Below are positions 53,943 through 60,990 of a stretch of DNA of 64,000 bases, piece by piece. Where the stretch lies: the IMG/VR virus record IMGVR_UViG_3300040786_000066. One strand, 5' to 3'. The notes beneath the pieces are model-generated. The model saw nothing but the letters and a program-made list of their open reading frames with translations. It was not told the origin of the DNA and did no database searches. The DNA is from a virus. A program made the translations under genes and the position numbers. Each line of letters opens with the position of its first letter. Within the stretch, counting starts at the first letter, position 1.

Positions 53943-54680
53943 CTCAATCTTTTAAGCAACACTTCAATACGTTTGTTAAGCACTACGATCTCTTCCTCAA
54001 AAGAAGCAAAGTTTTCGAAGATGTTAACTTTCGCACGAAGTTCCCTGTGCTCTAAGAGAAGTTTTTCTTCAGAATCCAACATAATGCTAGACACGTCTAG
54101 GATCTGAATCCCTTCGCCTATAGCACTATCTAACAAGTATCCCTTGGAATCTAAGTCTTCCAGAATTAGGTTTAAAGCCCTTCTCGATACACCAGTTTCT
54201 TTAACAAGAGCGGTAATGTTGCTGATGTTTGAAATTCTTTTTCTCCTAGCATGATGACTTTTATTATAAAAGCCTTCACGGAATGGGAGAGGTCCGGTCG
54301 AGAAATGAATGAGTAGGTTATGATTTGGTATTTGATTCGTAATTTGAGAATATTGGAAACGTAAGAAGTGCCTATTTTGTTTCTGAAAAGGAAGTTATTA
54401 TCCCTTTATCCTCCAGGTCTTTAATGCATTTTCTTACAGTGTTCTTGCTCAACCCCAGTACGGTAGTAAATGTTTCTAGTGAAAGAATTCTCCTGTCACC
54501 TCCTAATTTATAAGTAGAATCCAGAAACTGGTCTATATCTATAAAAGCCAAAACGATTAGGCTTTTTGAGTCTATGTTATCGAGCTGGAAAGGAACCCTG
54601 GAATGTTTTCCAAAAGCTGTGTCTTCCTTACCTCTGTGGGTTTCTATCTTTATCTTGTTGGTCTTATTTACTGCTGTCAT
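53936..54680 (-). CDS. winged HTH DNA-binding protein(s), probably joined to the downstream GIY-YIG module
   Basis: VLGLSKNTVRKCIKDLEDKGII and KETGVSRRALNLILEDLDSKGY HTH segments. Confidence 0.55.
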
Positions 54681-54806
54681 TTCTTATATATCTAGTGGAT
54701 AAATGTACTGAAAATATGCATGATCCCTCTCTAATAATACACTATTTTAATGTAATGCACCCTCTGGATAAAGTTCCATGAAAACTCTGAAAAATAAATA
54801 CTGCTT

Positions 54807-54839
54807 TTGTTGCAAGGCAGCATATTTTTGCTATATTTG
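54807..54839 (+). promoter_or_regulatory. Bacteroidota sigma-A-type promoter, tRNA operon 1
   Basis: -7 box TATATTTG (54832-54839), with TTTG/TTG upstream. Confidence 0.65.
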
Positions 54840-54844
54840 TAATC

Positions 54845-54913
54845 ATGAAAGCAATACTACTTCATATAGAACAACCACGACCGCTACTTTGTAACGGAGG
54901 AACTTCTGTATGA
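54845..54913 (+). CDS. attenuator leader peptide 1, MKAILLHIEQPRPLLCNGGTSV
   Basis: Intact 22-codon ORF between promoter and terminator; codons CTA, CAT, GAA, CAA, CCA, CCG match the downstream tRNAs. Confidence 0.75.
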   Translation: MKAILLHIEQPRPLLCNGGTSV

Positions 54914-54951
54914 TAGGCTGATTAAATAAAAATCGTCTTAGACACATATAC

Positions 54952-54980
54952 AAAATCCTTCTAGCAATAGAGGGATTTTT
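54952..54980 (+). terminator. attenuator terminator 1
   Basis: AAAATCCTTCTA-GCAA-TAGAGGGATTTTT, 6 nt before tRNA-Pro. Confidence 0.85.
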
Positions 54981-54986
54981 GCATTT

Positions 54987-55062
54987 CGGGGTGTAGCGTA
55001 GCCCGGTCTATCGCGCCTGCTTTGGGAGCAGGAGGTCGCAGGTTCAAATCCTGCCACCCCGA
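54987..55062 (+). tRNA. tRNA-Pro(TGG)
   Basis: Cloverleaf; CCTGC-TT TGG GA-GCAGG; GGTTCAAATCC. Confidence 0.95.
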
Positions 55063-55067
55063 CAAAT

Positions 55068-55142
55068 TCAGTAGATACAGTAATTGGAAACTGGTAACTG
55101 GCTGGGTCAGTGCATGGAAGGTTCGAATCCTTTCTACTTGAC
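55068..55142 (+). tRNA. atypical tRNA-like gene, anticodon unresolved (possibly Pro-GGG with a collapsed G run)
   Basis: D arm CAGT/ACTG, T arm GAAGGTTCGAATCCTTT, anticodon arm ACTGG-CTGGG-TCAGT with a 5-nt loop. Confidence 0.55.
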
Positions 55143-55180
55143 AAAGATGTTTATGCTTTTAACTTTAAAATAAAGCGCAC

Positions 55181-55252
55181 GGCGCCATCGTCTAACGGTT
55201 AGGACAGCAGGTTTTCATCCTGCAGATAGGAGTTCGATTCTCCTTGGCGCTA
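55181..55252 (+). tRNA. tRNA-Glu(TTC)
   Basis: GCAGG-TT TTC AT-CCTGC. Confidence 0.93.
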
Positions 55253-55257
55253 CAAAC

Positions 55258-55328
55258 TGGAGTATGGTGTAATGGTAACACAACTGTTTTTGGAGCAGTC
55301 GTTTTGGGTTCGAGTCCCGATATTCCTA
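55258..55328 (+). tRNA. tRNA-Gln(TTG)
   Basis: ACTGT-TT TTG GA-GCAGT. Confidence 0.9.
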
Positions 55329-55337
55329 CTAATACAT

Positions 55338-55423
55338 GGTGTTTGTTGCAGAGCGGTCAAATGCGCCAGGTTGTGGTCCTGGTACCCGTAAGGGTTTCGT
55401 GGGTTCGATTCCATCATTCACCC
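55338..55423 (+). tRNA. tRNA-His(GTG) with long variable arm
   Basis: CCAGG-TT GTG GT-CCTGG; G-1 and C73; extra hairpin ACCC-GTAA-GGGT. Confidence 0.85.
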
Positions 55424-55643
55424 AAAATACAATAATATGTTAGTAGATAAAAGAAGAGAAGAGGCCTTGAAAAGTCTGTACTACCTTGGGGAATAGCTGT
55501 TCAGATAAAAGACAGGTGCTATGGCAAAGTTATTGATAATTATAGGCATACAAATACCTGTATTGCTGTTATACCTTCAGATAAGACTTGTGTTGAATTC
55601 TATAGAATAGAGGAACTGGCAGTACAATAATAATAATGAATAA

Positions 55644-55725
55644 GCCTTCGTGATGAAATTGGTAGACATGCTAGATTTAGGATCTAGTGTCGCAAGACGT
55701 GTTGGTTCGAGTCCGACCGAAGGTA
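55644..55725 (+). tRNA. tRNA-Leu(TAG)
   Basis: CTAGA-TT TAG GA-TCTAG; class II variable arm. Confidence 0.95.
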
Positions 55726-55779
55726 CATATTAAATATTTAGTGATTCATAGTTCGAAAATAATTTACTATATTTGAACT

Positions 55780-56251
55780 ATGGAAAATAAAAAAAAGCTG
55801 TAGCAAGTAGATTAGGTTTTGTAGTAACAGAAGAAGGAGTTGCATACAATAAAAAAGTATTGTAGGATACAAAGATCCCAGAGGGTATTGCAGATTTACT
55901 TTTAAGCTAGTAGGAGTTTCAATAAACATAGCTATTCATAGGCTGCAAGCTTTTCAGAAGTATGGAGACCTCCTTTATGAAGAAGGTACAGTTGTTCGAC
56001 ATTTAAACGGTGATCCAGGAAGTAATGCTTGGGACAATATAGCAATAGGCACTATGTCAGACAACATGTTTGATATCCCTAAGCAAATAAGAATTCGAAG
56101 AGCTGAGCATGCGTCTTCTTTGTCACACAAGCACGATCACGTTAAAATTAAACAGTGGCACATAAATAACGGAGCATCTTATAAAAATACAATGATAGAA
56201 TTTGACATATCAAGCAAAGGCACATTAAATTATATACTAAAGAAAAGTTAA
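55780..56251 (+). CDS. HNH homing endonuclease, frameshifted
   Basis: IHRLQAF..YG...VVRHLNGDPGSNAWDNIAIGTMSDN motif with a C-terminal HTH-like segment. Confidence 0.8.
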
Positions 56252-56257
56252 ATAAAG

Positions 56258-56289
56258 TTTGGTAGTTAATACAACTTGTATTACATTTG
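56258..56289 (+). promoter_or_regulatory. Bacteroidota sigma-A-type promoter, tRNA operon 2
   Basis: TTTG (56258) - 20 nt - TACATTTG (56282-56289). Confidence 0.7.
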
Positions 56290-56318
56290 GCTTTCAATAT
56301 AAAACAAAAACACTTTCA

Positions 56319-56399
56319 GTGAACACAGCAATAAACATAGCAGTAGTAATTATGACCGGGGCCGATATGGCTTTGGAAGGATCTACGTGGTATGGCTAA
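56319..56399 (+). CDS. attenuator leader peptide 2, (M)NTAINIAVVIMTGADMALEGSTWYG
   Basis: GTG-start 26-codon ORF. The in-frame upstream KTKTLS suggests a true ATG near 56299 lost to an indel. Codons match the Ala/Ile/Gly/Met/Asp/Thr/Val tRNAs downstream. Confidence 0.72.
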   Translation: MNTAINIAVVIMTGADMALEGSTWYG

Positions 56400-56424
56400 A
56401 TTGAAAGCACATATAAAATAACAC

Positions 56425-56460
56425 AAAGATCCTTCTAGAAATAGAGGGATCTTTTTTTTT
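56425..56460 (+). terminator. attenuator terminator 2
   Basis: AAAGATCCTTCTA-GAAA-TAGAGGGATC-T9. Confidence 0.88.
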
Positions 56461-56530
56461 AGGTAAGCTCTATTGGACGAGCACCTGTTTTGCATACAGG
56501 AGGTTGCGGGTTCGGGTCCCGTCTATTCCA
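56459..56530 (+). tRNA. tRNA-Ala(TGC), 5' acceptor strand incomplete in this sequence
   Basis: CCTGT-TT TGC AT-ACAGG; T arm intact; the 5' end merges with the terminator T run. Confidence 0.75.
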
Positions 56531-56537
56531 CAATAAT

Positions 56538-56610
56538 AGAAGTATAACTCAGTTGGTAGAGTGCCCGCCTGATACGTGGGTTGTCGTAGGTTCGAGCCCT
56601 GCTACTTCTA
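56538..56610 (+). tRNA. tRNA-Ile(GAT)
   Basis: CCCGC-CT GAT AC-GTGGG. Confidence 0.92.
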
Positions 56611-56622
56611 CAAAATTTAAAC

Positions 56623-56697
56623 GCAGCAATCGCATAGTTGGTCAATTGTACCTGACTTCCAATCAGGATATCGTGAGTTCGAATCTCACTTGCTGCA
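56623..56697 (+). tRNA. tRNA-Gly(TCC)
   Basis: CCTGA-CT TCC AA-TCAGG. Confidence 0.92.
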
Positions 56698-56707
56698 CAG
56701 AATATAT

Positions 56708-56780
56708 TGCGAGATAGAGCAGCGGTAGCTCGTGGGTTTCATAAGCCTAAGGTCGTGGGTTCGAATCCCACTCTTCGCAA
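56708..56780 (+). tRNA. tRNA-Met(CAT), initiator-like D arm
   Basis: TGGGT-TT CAT AA-GCCTA; GAGCAGCGGTAGCTCG. Confidence 0.88.
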
Positions 56781-56785
56781 CAAAT

Positions 56786-56859
56786 GGTATTGCAGCATAT
56801 TGGCGTATGACGCTCCCCTGTCACGGGAGAGATTGAGGATTCGAATTCCTTCAGTACCG
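56786..56859 (+). tRNA. tRNA-Asp(GTC)
   Basis: CTCCC-CT GTC AC-GGGAG; G73. Confidence 0.9.
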
Positions 56860-56865
56860 CAACAT

Positions 56866-56938
56866 TCCCGAGTAGCTCAGTTGGTAGAGCGCTTGCCTTG
56901 TAAGCAAGATGTCGCAGGTTCAAGCCCTGTCTTGGGAT
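56866..56938 (+). tRNA. tRNA-Thr(TGT)
   Basis: CTTGC-CT TGT AA-GCAAG. Confidence 0.95.
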
Positions 56939-56942
56939 CTAT

Positions 56943-57017
56943 GCAGCAATAGCTCAGTTGGTTCAGAGCGTCTGGTTTACACCCAGAGGGTCGTAGGTTC
57001 GAATCCTTCTTGCTGTA
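56943..57017 (+). tRNA. tRNA-Val(TAC)
   Basis: TCTGG-TT TAC AC-CCAGA. Confidence 0.93.
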
Positions 57018-57022
57018 CAAAT

Positions 57023-57095
57023 CGCCCCATAGCTCAGTAGGTAGAGCACTCCCCTCATAAGGGATAGGTCACGAGTTCGAATCTCGTTGAGGCAA
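57023..57095 (+). tRNA. tRNA-CAT (elongator Met or lysidine-modified Ile2)
   Basis: TCCC-CT CAT AA-GGGA; standard D and T arms. Confidence 0.85.
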
Positions 57096-57115
57096 CTAAT
57101 TATTTTAACAAATAC

Positions 57116-57146
57116 TTGCACCGTATGTGTTATAGTAGTATATTTA
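57116..57146 (+). promoter_or_regulatory. Bacteroidota sigma-A-type promoter, tRNA operon 3
   Basis: TTG (57116) ... TATATTTA (57139-57146), one mismatch to TAnnTTTG. Confidence 0.55.
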
Positions 57147-57162
57147 CAGCTTAGAAAATAAA

Positions 57163-57234
57163 ATGAAAACACTTTCTTGTTCATATAATAGTTTTAATTC
57201 TTGGTTCTTCGGACCGAGCAAGACTATCGTATGA
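57163..57234 (+). CDS. attenuator leader peptide 3, MKTLSCSYNSFNSWFFGPSKTIV
   Basis: Intact 23-codon ORF; codons 5-16 are all Ser/Cys/Tyr/Asn/Phe/Trp, the tRNA set downstream. Confidence 0.8.
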   Translation: MKTLSCSYNSFNSWFFGPSKTIV

Positions 57235-57264
57235 TAAAGTGAACAACATATAAATCATCGAATT

Positions 57265-57295
57265 AAAGTCTTGCAGAAATGCAGGGCTTTTTTTT
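57265..57295 (+). terminator. attenuator terminator 3
   Basis: AAAGTCTTGCA-GAAA-TGCAGGGC-T8. Confidence 0.88.
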
Positions 57296-57304
57296 GTTTA
57301 ATAA

Positions 57305-57389
57305 GAGAGTCCAAAGTCAGCTTGGATCTGGCAGCCGGACTGTAAATCCGGTCTTGTTACGGGGAGAGGTTCGAGTCCTCGGGTTCTCA
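57305..57389 (+). tRNA. tRNA-Tyr(GTA)
   Basis: CCGGA-CT GTA AA-TCCGG; long variable arm. Confidence 0.85.
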
Positions 57390-57396
57390 CAATAAA

Positions 57397-57484
57397 GGAA
57401 GGTTAATCCAAGTTGGTCTAAGGGATGCGGTCTTGAAAACCGTTAGTCGTAATTGGCGTGTGGGTTCGAGTCCTACACCTTCCG
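57397..57484 (+). tRNA. tRNA-Ser(TGA)
   Basis: GCGGT-CT TGA AA-ACCGT; long variable arm; G73. Confidence 0.92.
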
Positions 57485-57488
57485 CAAC

Positions 57489-57576
57489 AGAAGAATGTCC
57501 GAGAGGCTGAAAGAGCTCGTCCGCTAAACGAGTGTGCATGGAATATGGCACCGTGGGTTCGAATCCACTTCTTCTA
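57489..57576 (+). tRNA. tRNA-Ser(GCT)
   Basis: CTCGT-CC GCT AA-ACGAG (C at position 33); long variable arm. Confidence 0.82.
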
Positions 57577-57583
57577 CAAATAT

Positions 57584-57656
57584 TCTTGTGTAGCTCAGTG
57601 GTCAGAGCGTCCGACTGTTAATCGGAGGGCCGTAGGTTCAAATCCTACCTCAAGAG
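57584..57656 (+). tRNA. tRNA-Asn(GTT)
   Basis: TCCGA-CT GTT AA-TCGGA. Confidence 0.95.
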
Positions 57657-57662
57657 CAAAAT

Positions 57663-57736
57663 ACGCTGGTGTCCGAGTGGTCCAAGGAAGATGTCTGCAA
57701 AACTGAAGAGCGTGAGTTCGAATCTCACCCGGCGTT
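57663..57736 (+). tRNA. tRNA-Cys(GCA)
   Basis: Loop CT GCA AA and U73; anticodon stem weak as sequenced. Confidence 0.8.
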
Positions 57737-57814
57737 CTAGAATCTACAGACTGTAGCGTGCTGTAGCTCTATCTTGTTGCCAATAAAATAAGACCTAATT
57801 TTAAAGTAAACATA

Positions 57815-58145
57815 ATGAATACAAGTACAAAACAAACTGAAAATTTAGCCAAATGTAGCGATAAGTCAAAACCATTGTTAGTGGCAGTTACTTGTCAATT
57901 AACTGAACGTGGTTTTCAACTAAAAACAGAGATAAAGTTAATGATGATAGGTTAGGTATAAAATTATCTTTTACAAATGAAGTTGGTAAATATGTTGAAA
58001 TTTACGATGAAGATACTTATTTGCATATTTTGCATTATGGATTTGATGGCAAATATTTACCTATTGGGTTTGATGTTTTATTTATAAAGATATTAAAAAA
58101 TATGGCGCGTTTTTAGACGGTATTTTGGCTAATTGCCTGTAGCAC
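57815..58145 (+). CDS. small hypothetical protein inserted in tRNA operon 3, frameshifted
   Basis: MNTSTKQTENLAKCSDKSKPLLVAVTCQLTERGFQLK...; AT-rich. Confidence 0.45.
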
Positions 58146-58211
58146 TTTGCTAAACGATATCAACTTAAGAGTGAGCCTTGTTATGATTGTCAAAAGTTGC
58201 TACAGTAAAAT

Positions 58212-58284
58212 AGTCGCCAGCATAATGGCATGCAGCAGGTCTCCAACACCTTGCATGGATGAGGTTCGATTCCTCAGGTGATTG
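58212..58284 (+). tRNA. tRNA-Trp(CCA)
   Basis: AGGT-CT CCA AC-ACCT; TGAGGTTCGATTCCTCA; G73. Confidence 0.8.
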
Positions 58285-58287
58285 CTA

Positions 58288-58358
58288 AGGAAAGTAGCTC
58301 AGGGTAGAGCACCAGATTGAAGATCTGGGTGTCGGTGGTTCGAGACCACCTTTTCCCA
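58288..58358 (+). tRNA. tRNA-Phe(GAA)
   Basis: CCAGA-TT GAA GA-TCTGG. Confidence 0.88.
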
Positions 58359-58592
58359 CTTATAAACCTACTGTTTATTTAATAAGCTAACACGTACTAA
58401 AAACTTGAGTTAAATTTTAATAGTATAAATTTGGTTATTATATTAATTTTAGTATATTCGTAGTCCCAAACCATTTGTTATGTATATGCTATTTTTTACT
58501 GTTGGAGTAGTTATAGGTATTATTCTATATCGTTTCTTTGCGACGATCCAAAATTAGCAAATAACCAGACAAAATCAAACCTACTAAAACCA

Positions 58593-58619
58593 AGCCCTGC
58601 CCCAAGCAAGGCTTTTTTT
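58593..58619 (+). terminator. intrinsic terminator closing the tRNA region
   Basis: AAGCCCTGC-CCCAA-GCAAGGCTTTTTT. Confidence 0.65.
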
Positions 58620-58687
58620 ATATGCCTCGGTTTCTGCTTTCTTTAAAACCTGATTTTAGTATTATAATAAGTACTAGCACATTCGAT

Positions 58688-60990
58688 ATGATATACTATA
58701 GCAAACAAAAGTACAGGCGGCACAACAGGGTGCTATATTACTAAACAACGATGCTCGATTGAGAAACGCTGTTCTAAGAAACGTAAGGACTATGGGCGGA
58801 CCAATGAAAAAACAACTCCGGTAACGCCTTTTAAAAGCCTCTATAGCCCCTTTAAAACAAAGTTTTCCTTCTAGAGTAAACGAGTCCACAAACGTTCCAA
58901 AATAAAGCCGCTCCTTACAACTCAAGAAGCAGCAAATAGCTTGACTGTTAAAGAAAAGCCGGAGTAGCAAAAGCCTACTTAAACGAGTGGATGGCTTCAC
59001 CCAGGTATATGGAAATGATCAAAACAAGCGCCCCTAAAACTTCCAAAAATAACGGAAAGAAGACAGGCTGATTTATACTCCGCGCAAGCAAGCTACATGC
59101 ATAGAGATAAAGGAAACACTGCTGCTGACTCCAGAAATTCGGACGGCAGTATTCGAGTATTCCGAAAAGGTGTAGGTACTAACGGTACTCTAGTGCATGA
59201 GATGTCGCACTCAAGCGACAGAACTGGCCGAAGTACAGGCGAAAGGCTGCCCATAACGGATGTAAAAGAATAGCAATGTTCTCCAATAGCGCTTATAGTG
59301 CAGTTAATAAAATAGTTCCAAATGAAAGAGCTGAAAGAAGAAGATGGGTATCTTATGTCACAGACCCTACAGAAACAAGAGCGCGATTAAATGACGTCCG
59401 ATTTCAGTCTAAAGAGCGCAGTATTTACGACCCCTAAGCAAAAAAGTTACTCCTGAAATATATGACAATATGAAAAGCCAAAATTTTGAAGATGAACAAC
59501 ACAGTGGCTTCGATGCTTTAAAACAGCTGAGAGGAATCTACTCAGACAAGGAAGTAATAAACTTATTGAACACCGTATCTGAAAATAAAAGAAAGCCCTT
59601 CCAAACAACATTGAACCACGATACTCATGATCTACTATAACAATAAAAGCGCCTCTGCCAAGTTACAGACCGGAGGTCAGACTCCCAAAGAATTCCAGAC
59701 AGAATACATCCAGTCCTCTAAATACGCAGCGCGACTTAAGAGTAGCGGATATCAAGCCATACCTAAAGTAGTTGAAAAAGACTTGGCCAAGTAGAACAAA
59801 CCGGGCTAAACAAATATAGAAAACACTGGGTGAGGCCTTGATGTCTTTCAAGTCCCTGCAGGCACCGGTAGTCATTTCGATAATTCAAGAGTCAACATAG
59901 ATTATAAAACTGATCTACATGATTTAAAAAAAGGATATCCAGGAATGACCATGCCTAGCCCAATAGAAGTAGAAGCACATGAGTTTTCTCATCCAAGTGT
60001 AGCCGATCTAAAAGGCTTATCACAAGATAATATCATGAACGATTACGACAACAGACAGCTTATTGGCAGAGGCCAGCGCCTTCCGTACGTAAACGACCAC
60101 GATAAAAGAGCCAGTGAAAACAAGGCGGACATCGACGCCTACAGGTACATGCTGAAACAGAAAGGTGTACGACGCCGGCAAGGAGACCTTCACGAAAGAA
60201 CATCTGAAAACAATTCCAAGAATTTCAGTCGAGAACGCCTTCAAAGAAACTACTCTGATAAAAATCTGATCTGGCTTATGAACAACGTGGCTTCATCTCC
60301 GTCAGTGCCTTCGGCTTCGCCGCCTGTCGCGGGATCGAGTCCTCTTGTACCTTATAATAATTCGCAGCGCGTAATGAAAGCCGGCATGCAAATGGATTGG
60401 GATGCAGTTAGAAATGTTAACGACAACGGCCTTGTGCAAACTGCTAAGATATTTGACCCTACTGGAATATCTTCCTATCCCGATGTGTACTATGCCTATA
60501 AAGATATGGTTGCAGGAAAAGGGTCCGCTACAAATTTGGGACTTAATATATTAGAGCTCTACCGGTAATAGGTAAAGCCAAGACTATATTTAGAATGGCC
60601 AAACTAAACAGGGTTGGAAAACCTACTGTAGGCTTAATAAAAGCAATGGATGGAGTAGCGTCAATAACCTCAAGCATAAACAAAGTTACCGGGGCACCAG
60701 TAGCCTACGCAAGAACTCTTTCAGGATCGAGCAATAGGGTAGTTCGAGGTGCGTCCTACTTAGCAAAAGGAGCTGATAATATAAGTACAAACCTCGCTAA
60801 AAAATTAAGGCCTACTGGAGAAAAGTATTCTTATAAAGTAATTACCAACTCTGACTATAAAACCTAGGAGTAGACGTGCTAGATACAGGAACTTTTACAT
60901 GACTTAAATGCTGCCGTATCTACAGCAGTGCCTACAAAGAAATCACTGATCGATAAAAATAAAAAAATTGTTTTACAGACTCGAATAATG
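58688..60990 (+). CDS. large putative virion protein(s) with two HExxH zincin-like motifs, frameshifted
   Basis: LVHEMSHSSD (~59190) followed by YVTDPTETRARL; EAHEFSHPS (~59975); late-promoter motif at 58657. Confidence 0.5.

Follow-up and report, generated by a model that had tools for sequence, protein, structure and literature searches.

Codon-matched leader reading frames precede three phage tRNA operons and probably act as transcription attenuators

Introduction

Textbook leader-peptide attenuators control amino-acid biosynthesis: the ilvGMEDA leader senses Ile, Leu and Val, thrL senses Thr and Ile, and trpL, hisL and pheL are further cases. The pheST (pheM) attenuator of Escherichia coli controls phenylalanyl-tRNA synthetase. 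Here, we analyze a 64,000-nucleotide stretch of viral DNA (IMG/VR record IMGVR_UViG_3300040786_000066; hereafter the window), in which an array of tRNA genes is divided into three units (U1, U2 and U3), each opening with a short leader open reading frame (ORF) followed by an intrinsic terminator. We propose that these units are ribosome-mediated transcription attenuators of the trp/ilv type, a new variant placed before phage tRNA operons, and we assign this reading a probability of about 0.8.

The phage units share with the multivalent attenuators of enterobacteria a promoter, a short leader with control codons, the helices 1:2, 2:3 and 3:4, an intrinsic terminator immediately ahead of the genes under control, and the sampling of several amino acids per leader. 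Their output is different: enterobacterial attenuators regulate biosynthetic enzymes, whereas the phage units would regulate tRNAs, so that the product feeds back directly on the signal. The phage units also sample five to seven amino acids with one to three codons each, are phage-encoded, and combine putative promoters of Bacteroidota type with the lack of a Shine-Dalgarno sequence and a very short or absent 5′ untranslated region. Their leaders show no sequence similarity to enterobacterial leaders. The pheST attenuator resembles them in that a leader peptide controls a component of the translation apparatus through decoding of codons for its own amino acid, but its target is a synthetase, it senses one amino acid, and it is cellular rather than viral.

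T-boxes likewise let tRNA status choose between a terminator and an antiterminator upstream of translation-related genes. They differ in binding uncharged tRNA directly, without ORF or ribosome, and none is known to gate tRNA genes. An Rfam search of positions 54000-59500 identified no T-box and no Trp, His, Leu, Thr or other leader family at E <= 1, returning only tRNAs and chance-level matches.

Phage tRNA arrays have themselves been interpreted as compensation or counter-defence, and the array described here shares with those cases a large set able to substitute for host tRNAs. A T5 tRNA, for example, is reported to neutralise PARIS (PMC11464382). The new part here is the regulation rather than the tRNAs; the abstracts found on such arrays do not mention leader-peptide control. 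The phi38:1 transcriptome paper (PMC5335546) contains nothing on phage tRNA leaders. In our literature search, leader-peptide control of tRNA genes was not described for cells or viruses, nor were codon-matched attenuators on phage tRNA arrays, of which an earlier interpretation of the window from its letters alone (the sequence-only reading) had known no description either.

Results

Three tRNA units share one layout

To define the array, tRNA genes were called with ARAGORN, Rfam and relaxed ARAGORN. ARAGORN identified 17 tRNAs on the plus strand, from 54987 to 58359. Four further genes, all missed by standard ARAGORN, were seen only by Rfam (tRNA-Ala at 56462-56530, and tRNA-Cys) or by relaxed ARAGORN (tRNA-Trp and a second, Pro-like gene). 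The Ala and second Pro genes are intact in L004, a near-identical but independent contig that differs from the window by small indels.

The array resolves into three blocks with a common layout (Table 1): a promoter-like site of Bacteroidota type, a leader ORF of 22-26 codons, the motif ACATATA, a GNRA-capped intrinsic terminator, and the tRNA genes. In all three units, the leader ORF, bounded by a start and a stop codon, lies 27-41 nt upstream of the hairpin and its T-run, and ACATATA is positioned between the leader stop codon and the terminator. The T-runs end 2-10 nt ahead of tRNA-Pro, tRNA-Ala and tRNA-Tyr, respectively. This gap is too small to hold a promoter, and the tRNAs would therefore be reachable only by read-through. 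The sequence-only reading had described the same three-unit layout, with ACATATA and a GNRA-capped terminator in each unit; the coordinates of site, ORF, terminator and first tRNA bear this out in three of three units, and the codon lists it gave for the leaders are correct.

Leader codons match the tRNAs of their own block

Each of the 18 amino acids for which the three blocks supply tRNAs is present in the block's own leader (18/18), in agreement with the earlier claim that each identifiable tRNA has a cognate codon there. Leader 2 contains an unbroken run of 12 residues drawn from its own set, as does leader 3. Among the window's other small ORFs, which served as background, none (0/549) reached an own-set run of 12 for the leader 2 or leader 3 set. 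Most control codons are readable by anticodons of their own block, and leader 3 uses both Ser codon boxes, matching its two Ser tRNAs.

The match is specific to one reading frame. Across 13 units, including those of relatives, the mean own-set fraction was 0.65 in the ORF frame versus 0.25 and 0.24 in the other two, and the ORF frame scored highest in every unit (13/13). The match also holds at the level of isoacceptors for Leu, Arg and Ser, which suggests that tRNA species, and not just amino acids, matter.

Leader composition covaries with tRNA content in other phages

Among cultured phages, those of Cellulophaga (Flavobacteriia) are closest in the tRNA region. In phi17:2 and phi4:1 (genus Lightbulbvirus), the three blocks recur in unchanged order and each has a leader, while in Calle_1 and phi40:1 (genus Callevirus, another family), the three modules are reordered, each behind the same promoter. 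Exact-pattern scans for close relatives (tRNA-Gly, terminator) returned only the same phage and a few others; it took a search with a neighbouring protein to reach L050, an uncultured relative that carries all three units and whose neighbouring helix-turn-helix (HTH) protein is 64% identical. Leader conservation, on which the sequence-only reading depended, is accordingly found in L050, phi17:2, phi4:1, Calle_1 and phi40:1. Leader 2 of the window lacks an ATG, its sole in-frame start being the GTG at 56319, and ACA stands where leader 3 and Calle_1 have ATG; this GTG start recurs in L050, with an in-frame stop just upstream, and in phi17:2.

These relatives carry additional tRNAs, namely Leu-TAA and Arg-ACG in block 1 and Lys-TTT and Arg-TCT in block 2, and TTA, CGN, AAR and AGA appear among the control codons of their leaders. 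The window has none of these four tRNAs, and its control runs are devoid of TTR, AAR and AGR codons, with only CGA left. In a different phage type (L005 and L017), a block of Pro, Ala, Lys, Lys, Pro, Gly, Gln, Tyr and Thr tRNAs follows a leader whose control run consists solely of Thr, Lys, Tyr, Gln, Pro and Gly. A further form, found in L010 (4401-4544) and in L014, L022, L025, L028 and L038, has a single leader of 46-48 codons that contains all 20 amino acids and precedes an array of 24-27 tRNAs, likewise covering all 20 at complete loci. This leader ends in the same arrangement of GTATGA, ACATATA and terminator; random 46-mers contained all 20 amino acids in 0.4% of trials.

Permutation of tRNA sets among 17 non-redundant leader units never produced a match as good as the observed one (0/100,000), showing that leader codons covary with downstream tRNA content, in line with the sequence-only reading. 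This test alone used the output of an automatic unit finder, applied to 34 further viral loci, which overlooked many units and placed some block limits wrongly where a locus ended; examples were checked by eye. The covariation in relatives is the strongest evidence for attenuation.

Leader order and annotation showed further features. The first seven control residues of Calle_1 leader C (L008 4038-4127) are Arg, Leu, Leu, His, Gln, Glu and Pro, the exact reverse of its block's tRNAs (Pro, Glu, Gln, His, Leu, Leu, Arg); a reverse-order trend is also visible in phi17:2 and in leader 1 of the window, and may be coincidental. GenBank already lists some leader ORFs (L001 3135-3254; L009 1308-1415 and 4025-4129) as hypothetical proteins of Cellulophaga phages, giving them upstream starts that extend into the promoter. 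One annotated coding sequence (L001 5076-5177) overlaps an ARAGORN tRNA-Ser-TGA.

Mutually exclusive helices are predicted in the leaders

The full leaders of the window fold much better than dinucleotide shuffles (z = -4.7, -5.5 and -5.7 for U1, U2 and U3), and their minimum free energy (MFE) structure combines the terminator with a hairpin upstream of it. For U1 and U3, this upstream hairpin, helix 1:2, has its 5′ strand in the control codons and its 3′ strand over the last codons and the stop codon. A helix 1:2 overlapping the control codons is clear in U1, U3 and all three units of L050.

Just past the control run, each ORF contains a segment complementary to the 5′ arm of the terminator, with which it would form helix 2:3. 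Since homologous leaders were too diverged and too few for a reliable alignment, this helix was tested unit by unit as complementarity against shuffles, yielding a Fisher-combined p of 3e-9 over 13 units. The segments end 6-12 nt ahead of the stop codon in the window units, and their sequences differ wholly between units while complementarity is kept; L050 shows the same helix architecture with different sequences. In U1 and U2, ACATATA pairs with GUAUG at the leader end as the inner helix of the antiterminator, mimicking a similar sequence of region 1, while the predicted inner helix of U3 uses neighbouring sequence instead.

In the folding model, helix 2:3 was preferred when the 3′ arm of the terminator was omitted or when a 30-nt ribosome footprint was placed on the control codons (0.7-0.99). 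With the modelled ribosome further along, up to the stop codon, helix 2:3 was lost in most units; a ribosome placed at the stop codon itself let the terminator form.

Table 1. Positions of predicted features in the three tRNA units of the window
Feature	Position	Strand	Details
U1 promoter-like site	54810..54839	+	TTG, 19-nt spacer, TAnnTTTG; loose motif, positional; start codon 5 nt on
U1 leader ORF	54845..54913	+	22 codons; control run in codons 5-15: Leu, His, Glu, Gln, Pro, plus Ile ATA and Arg CGA
U1 helix 1:2	54862..54913	+	54862-54871 with 54904-54913; overlaps control codons and stop codon; MFE, z = -4.7
U1 antiterminator 2:3	54889..54967	+	54896-54901 with 54956-54961; 54907-54912 with ACATATA motif at 54945-54950
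U1 intrinsic terminator	54955..54980	+	9-bp stem 54955-54976; GCAA loop; T-run to 54980
U1 tRNAs	54987..55726	+	Pro-TGG, second Pro-like (55068-55142), Glu-TTC, Gln-TTG, His-GTG, Leu-TAG
U2 promoter-like site	56259..56289	+	
U2 leader ORF	56319..56399	+	GTG start; 26 codons; control run in codons 3-18: Thr, Ala, Ile, Val, Met, Gly, Asp; sole outsider Asn
U2 antiterminator 2:3	56372..56439	+	56372-56384 with 56427-56439; inner helix uses ACATATA motif 56409-56415
U2 intrinsic terminator	56427..56460	+	Hairpin 56427-56452; GAAA loop; 9 T to 56460
U2 tRNAs	56462..57096	+	Ala-TGC, Ile-GAT, Gly-TCC, Met-CAT, Asp-GTC, Thr-TGT, Val-TAC, second CAT
U3 promoter-like site	57116..57146	+	
U3 leader ORF	57163..57234	+	23 codons; codons 5-16 only Ser, Cys, Tyr, Asn, Phe, Trp
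U3 helix 1:2	57181..57234	+	57181-57195 with 57220-57234; z = -5.7
U3 antiterminator 2:3	57218..57274	+	57218-57225 exact complement of 57267-57274
U3 intrinsic terminator	57267..57295	+	Hairpin 57267-57288; GAAA loop; 8 T to 57295
U3 tRNAs	57305..58359	+	Tyr-GTA, Ser-TGA, Ser-GCT, Asn-GTT, Cys-GCA (57663-57736), 470-nt insert, Trp-CCA (58212-58285), Phe-GAA

Bacterial tRNA loci

The leader layout was not seen at 40 tRNA loci of two Flavobacteriaceae genomes, a small sample in which the hairpin of one locus (L183) was left uninspected. A hairpin with a T-run just upstream of the tRNAs occurred at three of these 40 loci, two of them being the same Thr-Tyr-Gly-Thr locus and the third L183. At the Thr-Tyr-Gly-Thr operon (L172, reverse, ~487-513; L204, ~658-684), a GAAA-capped hairpin and T-run abut a -7 box of the form TAnnTTTG, leaving no space for an ORF, and no leader ORF is present. 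The hairpin probably terminates the upstream gene, with the tRNA transcript starting inside it. By eye only, that upstream gene is possibly a hibernation-factor homologue. The phage tRNA-Gly pattern had no match in bacterial genomes.

Genomic context and assembly quality

The window is phage DNA, its larger ORFs matching PHROGs for tail fibres and other tail or virion proteins. The minus strand carries an HTH-domain gene (54372-54680) that adjoins the tRNA array on its upstream side. Over positions 1-54000 of the minus strand, chains of short overlapping frames stand in for long genes. An alternative genetic code was considered for these many short ORFs and rejected, as no code restored long frames. 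The short overlapping frames, together with the indels relative to L004, suggest instead that the window assembly is probably indel-prone; one such indel damages the acceptor stem of tRNA-Ala (56460-56470 region). The three leader regions are identical in the window and L004 except for one T in one T-run, and this identity in an independent contig argues that the leaders are not assembly artefacts.

Several inserts and unusual elements were observed in and around the array. An HNH endonuclease ORF (55853-56251, plus strand; Pfam HNH_3, E = 1e-7), with a start possibly near 55780 and an N-terminal part that appears frameshifted, lies between block 1 and the U2 promoter, the place where relatives carry tRNA-Leu-TAA and tRNA-Arg-ACG. 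In L050, a different HNH gene is inserted after a broken tRNA-Tyr in block 3. The window's tRNA-His (55338-55423) spans 86 nt, carries an additional hairpin in its variable region and scores low in Rfam (30.9 bits); the long form also occurs in L004, and tRNA-His of phi17:2 is of normal length. Within block 1, a 220-nt spacer (55424-55643) separates His from Leu, and within block 3, 470 nt between Cys and Trp (57740-58210) contain small ORFs without Pfam match. Past the last tRNA (58480-58620), a 25-codon hydrophobic ORF is followed by a plus-strand hairpin and T-run, which likely marks the end of the tRNA transcription unit.

Discussion

The proposal that leader-peptide attenuators with control codons matching the gated tRNAs precede these operons, already advanced in the sequence-only reading, is supported by the frame-specific match, the covariation, the mutually exclusive helices and the lack of room for a promoter. 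Leader translation, termination or read-through, and the physiological trigger are what we infer beyond these observations. In this mechanism, transcription would start at a Bacteroidota-type promoter, and a ribosome would enter the short leader ORF almost at once. With quick decoding, the ribosome would reach the stop codon and cover region 2, the 3:4 terminator would form, and RNA polymerase would halt a few bases short of the first tRNA. With an aminoacyl-tRNA in short supply, a control codon would be read slowly, and the stalled ribosome would keep region 1 open and region 2 free; region 2 could then pair with region 3, blocking the terminator and letting polymerase enter the tRNA genes. 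The phage thus probably expresses a given tRNA set only while its codons are being decoded slowly. Because the control codons are read by tRNAs of the same operon, the circuit would constitute a multi-input (OR-type) negative-feedback sensor that supplies a tRNA set on demand.

Several observations weigh against this interpretation. Leader 1 is marginal on its own: 21 of 549 background ORFs equal its own-set fraction and coverage jointly, its run is broken by ATA and CGA, which have no cognate tRNA in its block, and it carries CGA although the window array is devoid of any Arg tRNA. Each amino acid is sampled by only one to three codons, fewer than in classic attenuators, and sensitivity to mild shortage may therefore be low. 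The GTG start of leader 2 sits in a context that is not A-rich. The sequence-only reading had named TAnnTTTG-type promoters; a promoter-like site does precede each leader, but the motif is loose, with 37 matches in the window versus 18 in shuffles. Helix 1:2 of U2 is weak and present only in the full-length MFE structure, which explains why the model predicts U2 to be largely ON without translation (0.87). U2 of phi17:2 shows no significant antiterminator signal under an automatic definition of the arm, and the ribosome model is thermodynamic, ignoring kinetics and polymerase pausing.

The most probable alternative keeps the same hardware and changes its purpose: the leaders would detect when host anticodon nucleases remove a particular tRNA and would respond, as a counter-defence, by turning on the replacement set. 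One to three codons per tRNA suit severe loss of one species, as in an OR gate, better than graded starvation, and matching at the isoacceptor level for Leu, Arg and Ser speaks for tRNA species over amino acids. Phage tRNAs are also reported to rescue infection from the PARIS nuclease (PMC11464382). Nevertheless, we consider this purpose unlikely: our analysis linked the units to no defence system, the leaders sample nearly the whole array and thus reach beyond known nuclease targets, and simple supply-and-demand feedback accounts for the same anatomy. A more general proposition, doubtful but slightly better placed, is that Bacteroidota phages, cultured Cellulophaga phages among them, use ribosome-based multi-input sensors to detect the loss or shortage of any single tRNA species and transcribe exactly the block that replaces it, to which an anti-nuclease origin may apply.

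Alternatively, the units could be a switch for translation capacity or timing that reports whether ribosomes translate at all, as between early and late infection or under host shut-off, the codon match being secondary. Such a switch would fit the prediction that several units are ON when no ribosome is present but OFF when translation is fast (W_U2 0.87, Cal_A 1.0, L5_1 0.94), and the position of several leader starts 4-5 nt from the promoter -7 box would allow initiation to be regulated. It leaves unexplained, however, why leader composition tracks tRNA content, including the gains and losses of Lys, Arg and Leu-TAA, and we regard it as improbable.

Still less probable is an RNA switch that works without translation, by direct binding of a tRNA or protein to the alternative hairpins, with the ORF incidental. 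The alternative helices do exist irrespective of translation, but no T-box or other Rfam family was detected at the E-value cutoff given above, and the codon signal is confined to a single start- and stop-bounded frame in 13 of 13 units. Moreover, substitutions between relatives keep to the amino-acid set, whereas the RNA sequence is not conserved. Least credible of all are ordinary small ORFs and terminators without regulatory link, matched by chance or shared ancestry: such ORFs and hairpins occur commonly, the promoter motif is loose and leader 1 is weak alone, yet neither the background ORFs (0/549) nor the permutations (0/100,000) reproduced the match, layout and covariation are conserved across several phage lineages, and the terminators abut the tRNAs, leaving them promoterless.

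Since the layout is present in cultured Cellulophaga phages, the idea of attenuated tRNA operons is directly testable at the bench. If sensing of tRNA loss were to hold, the units would represent a self-regulating translational rescue and the first case of leader-peptide attenuation of tRNA genes. If the attenuator interpretation is correct, phages use the ribosome to meter their own supply of tRNAs one block at a time. This would bear on why phages carry large tRNA sets and why phage tRNA genes are grouped as found, and on how phages cope with codon-usage mismatch, host shut-off and tRNA-targeting defences.

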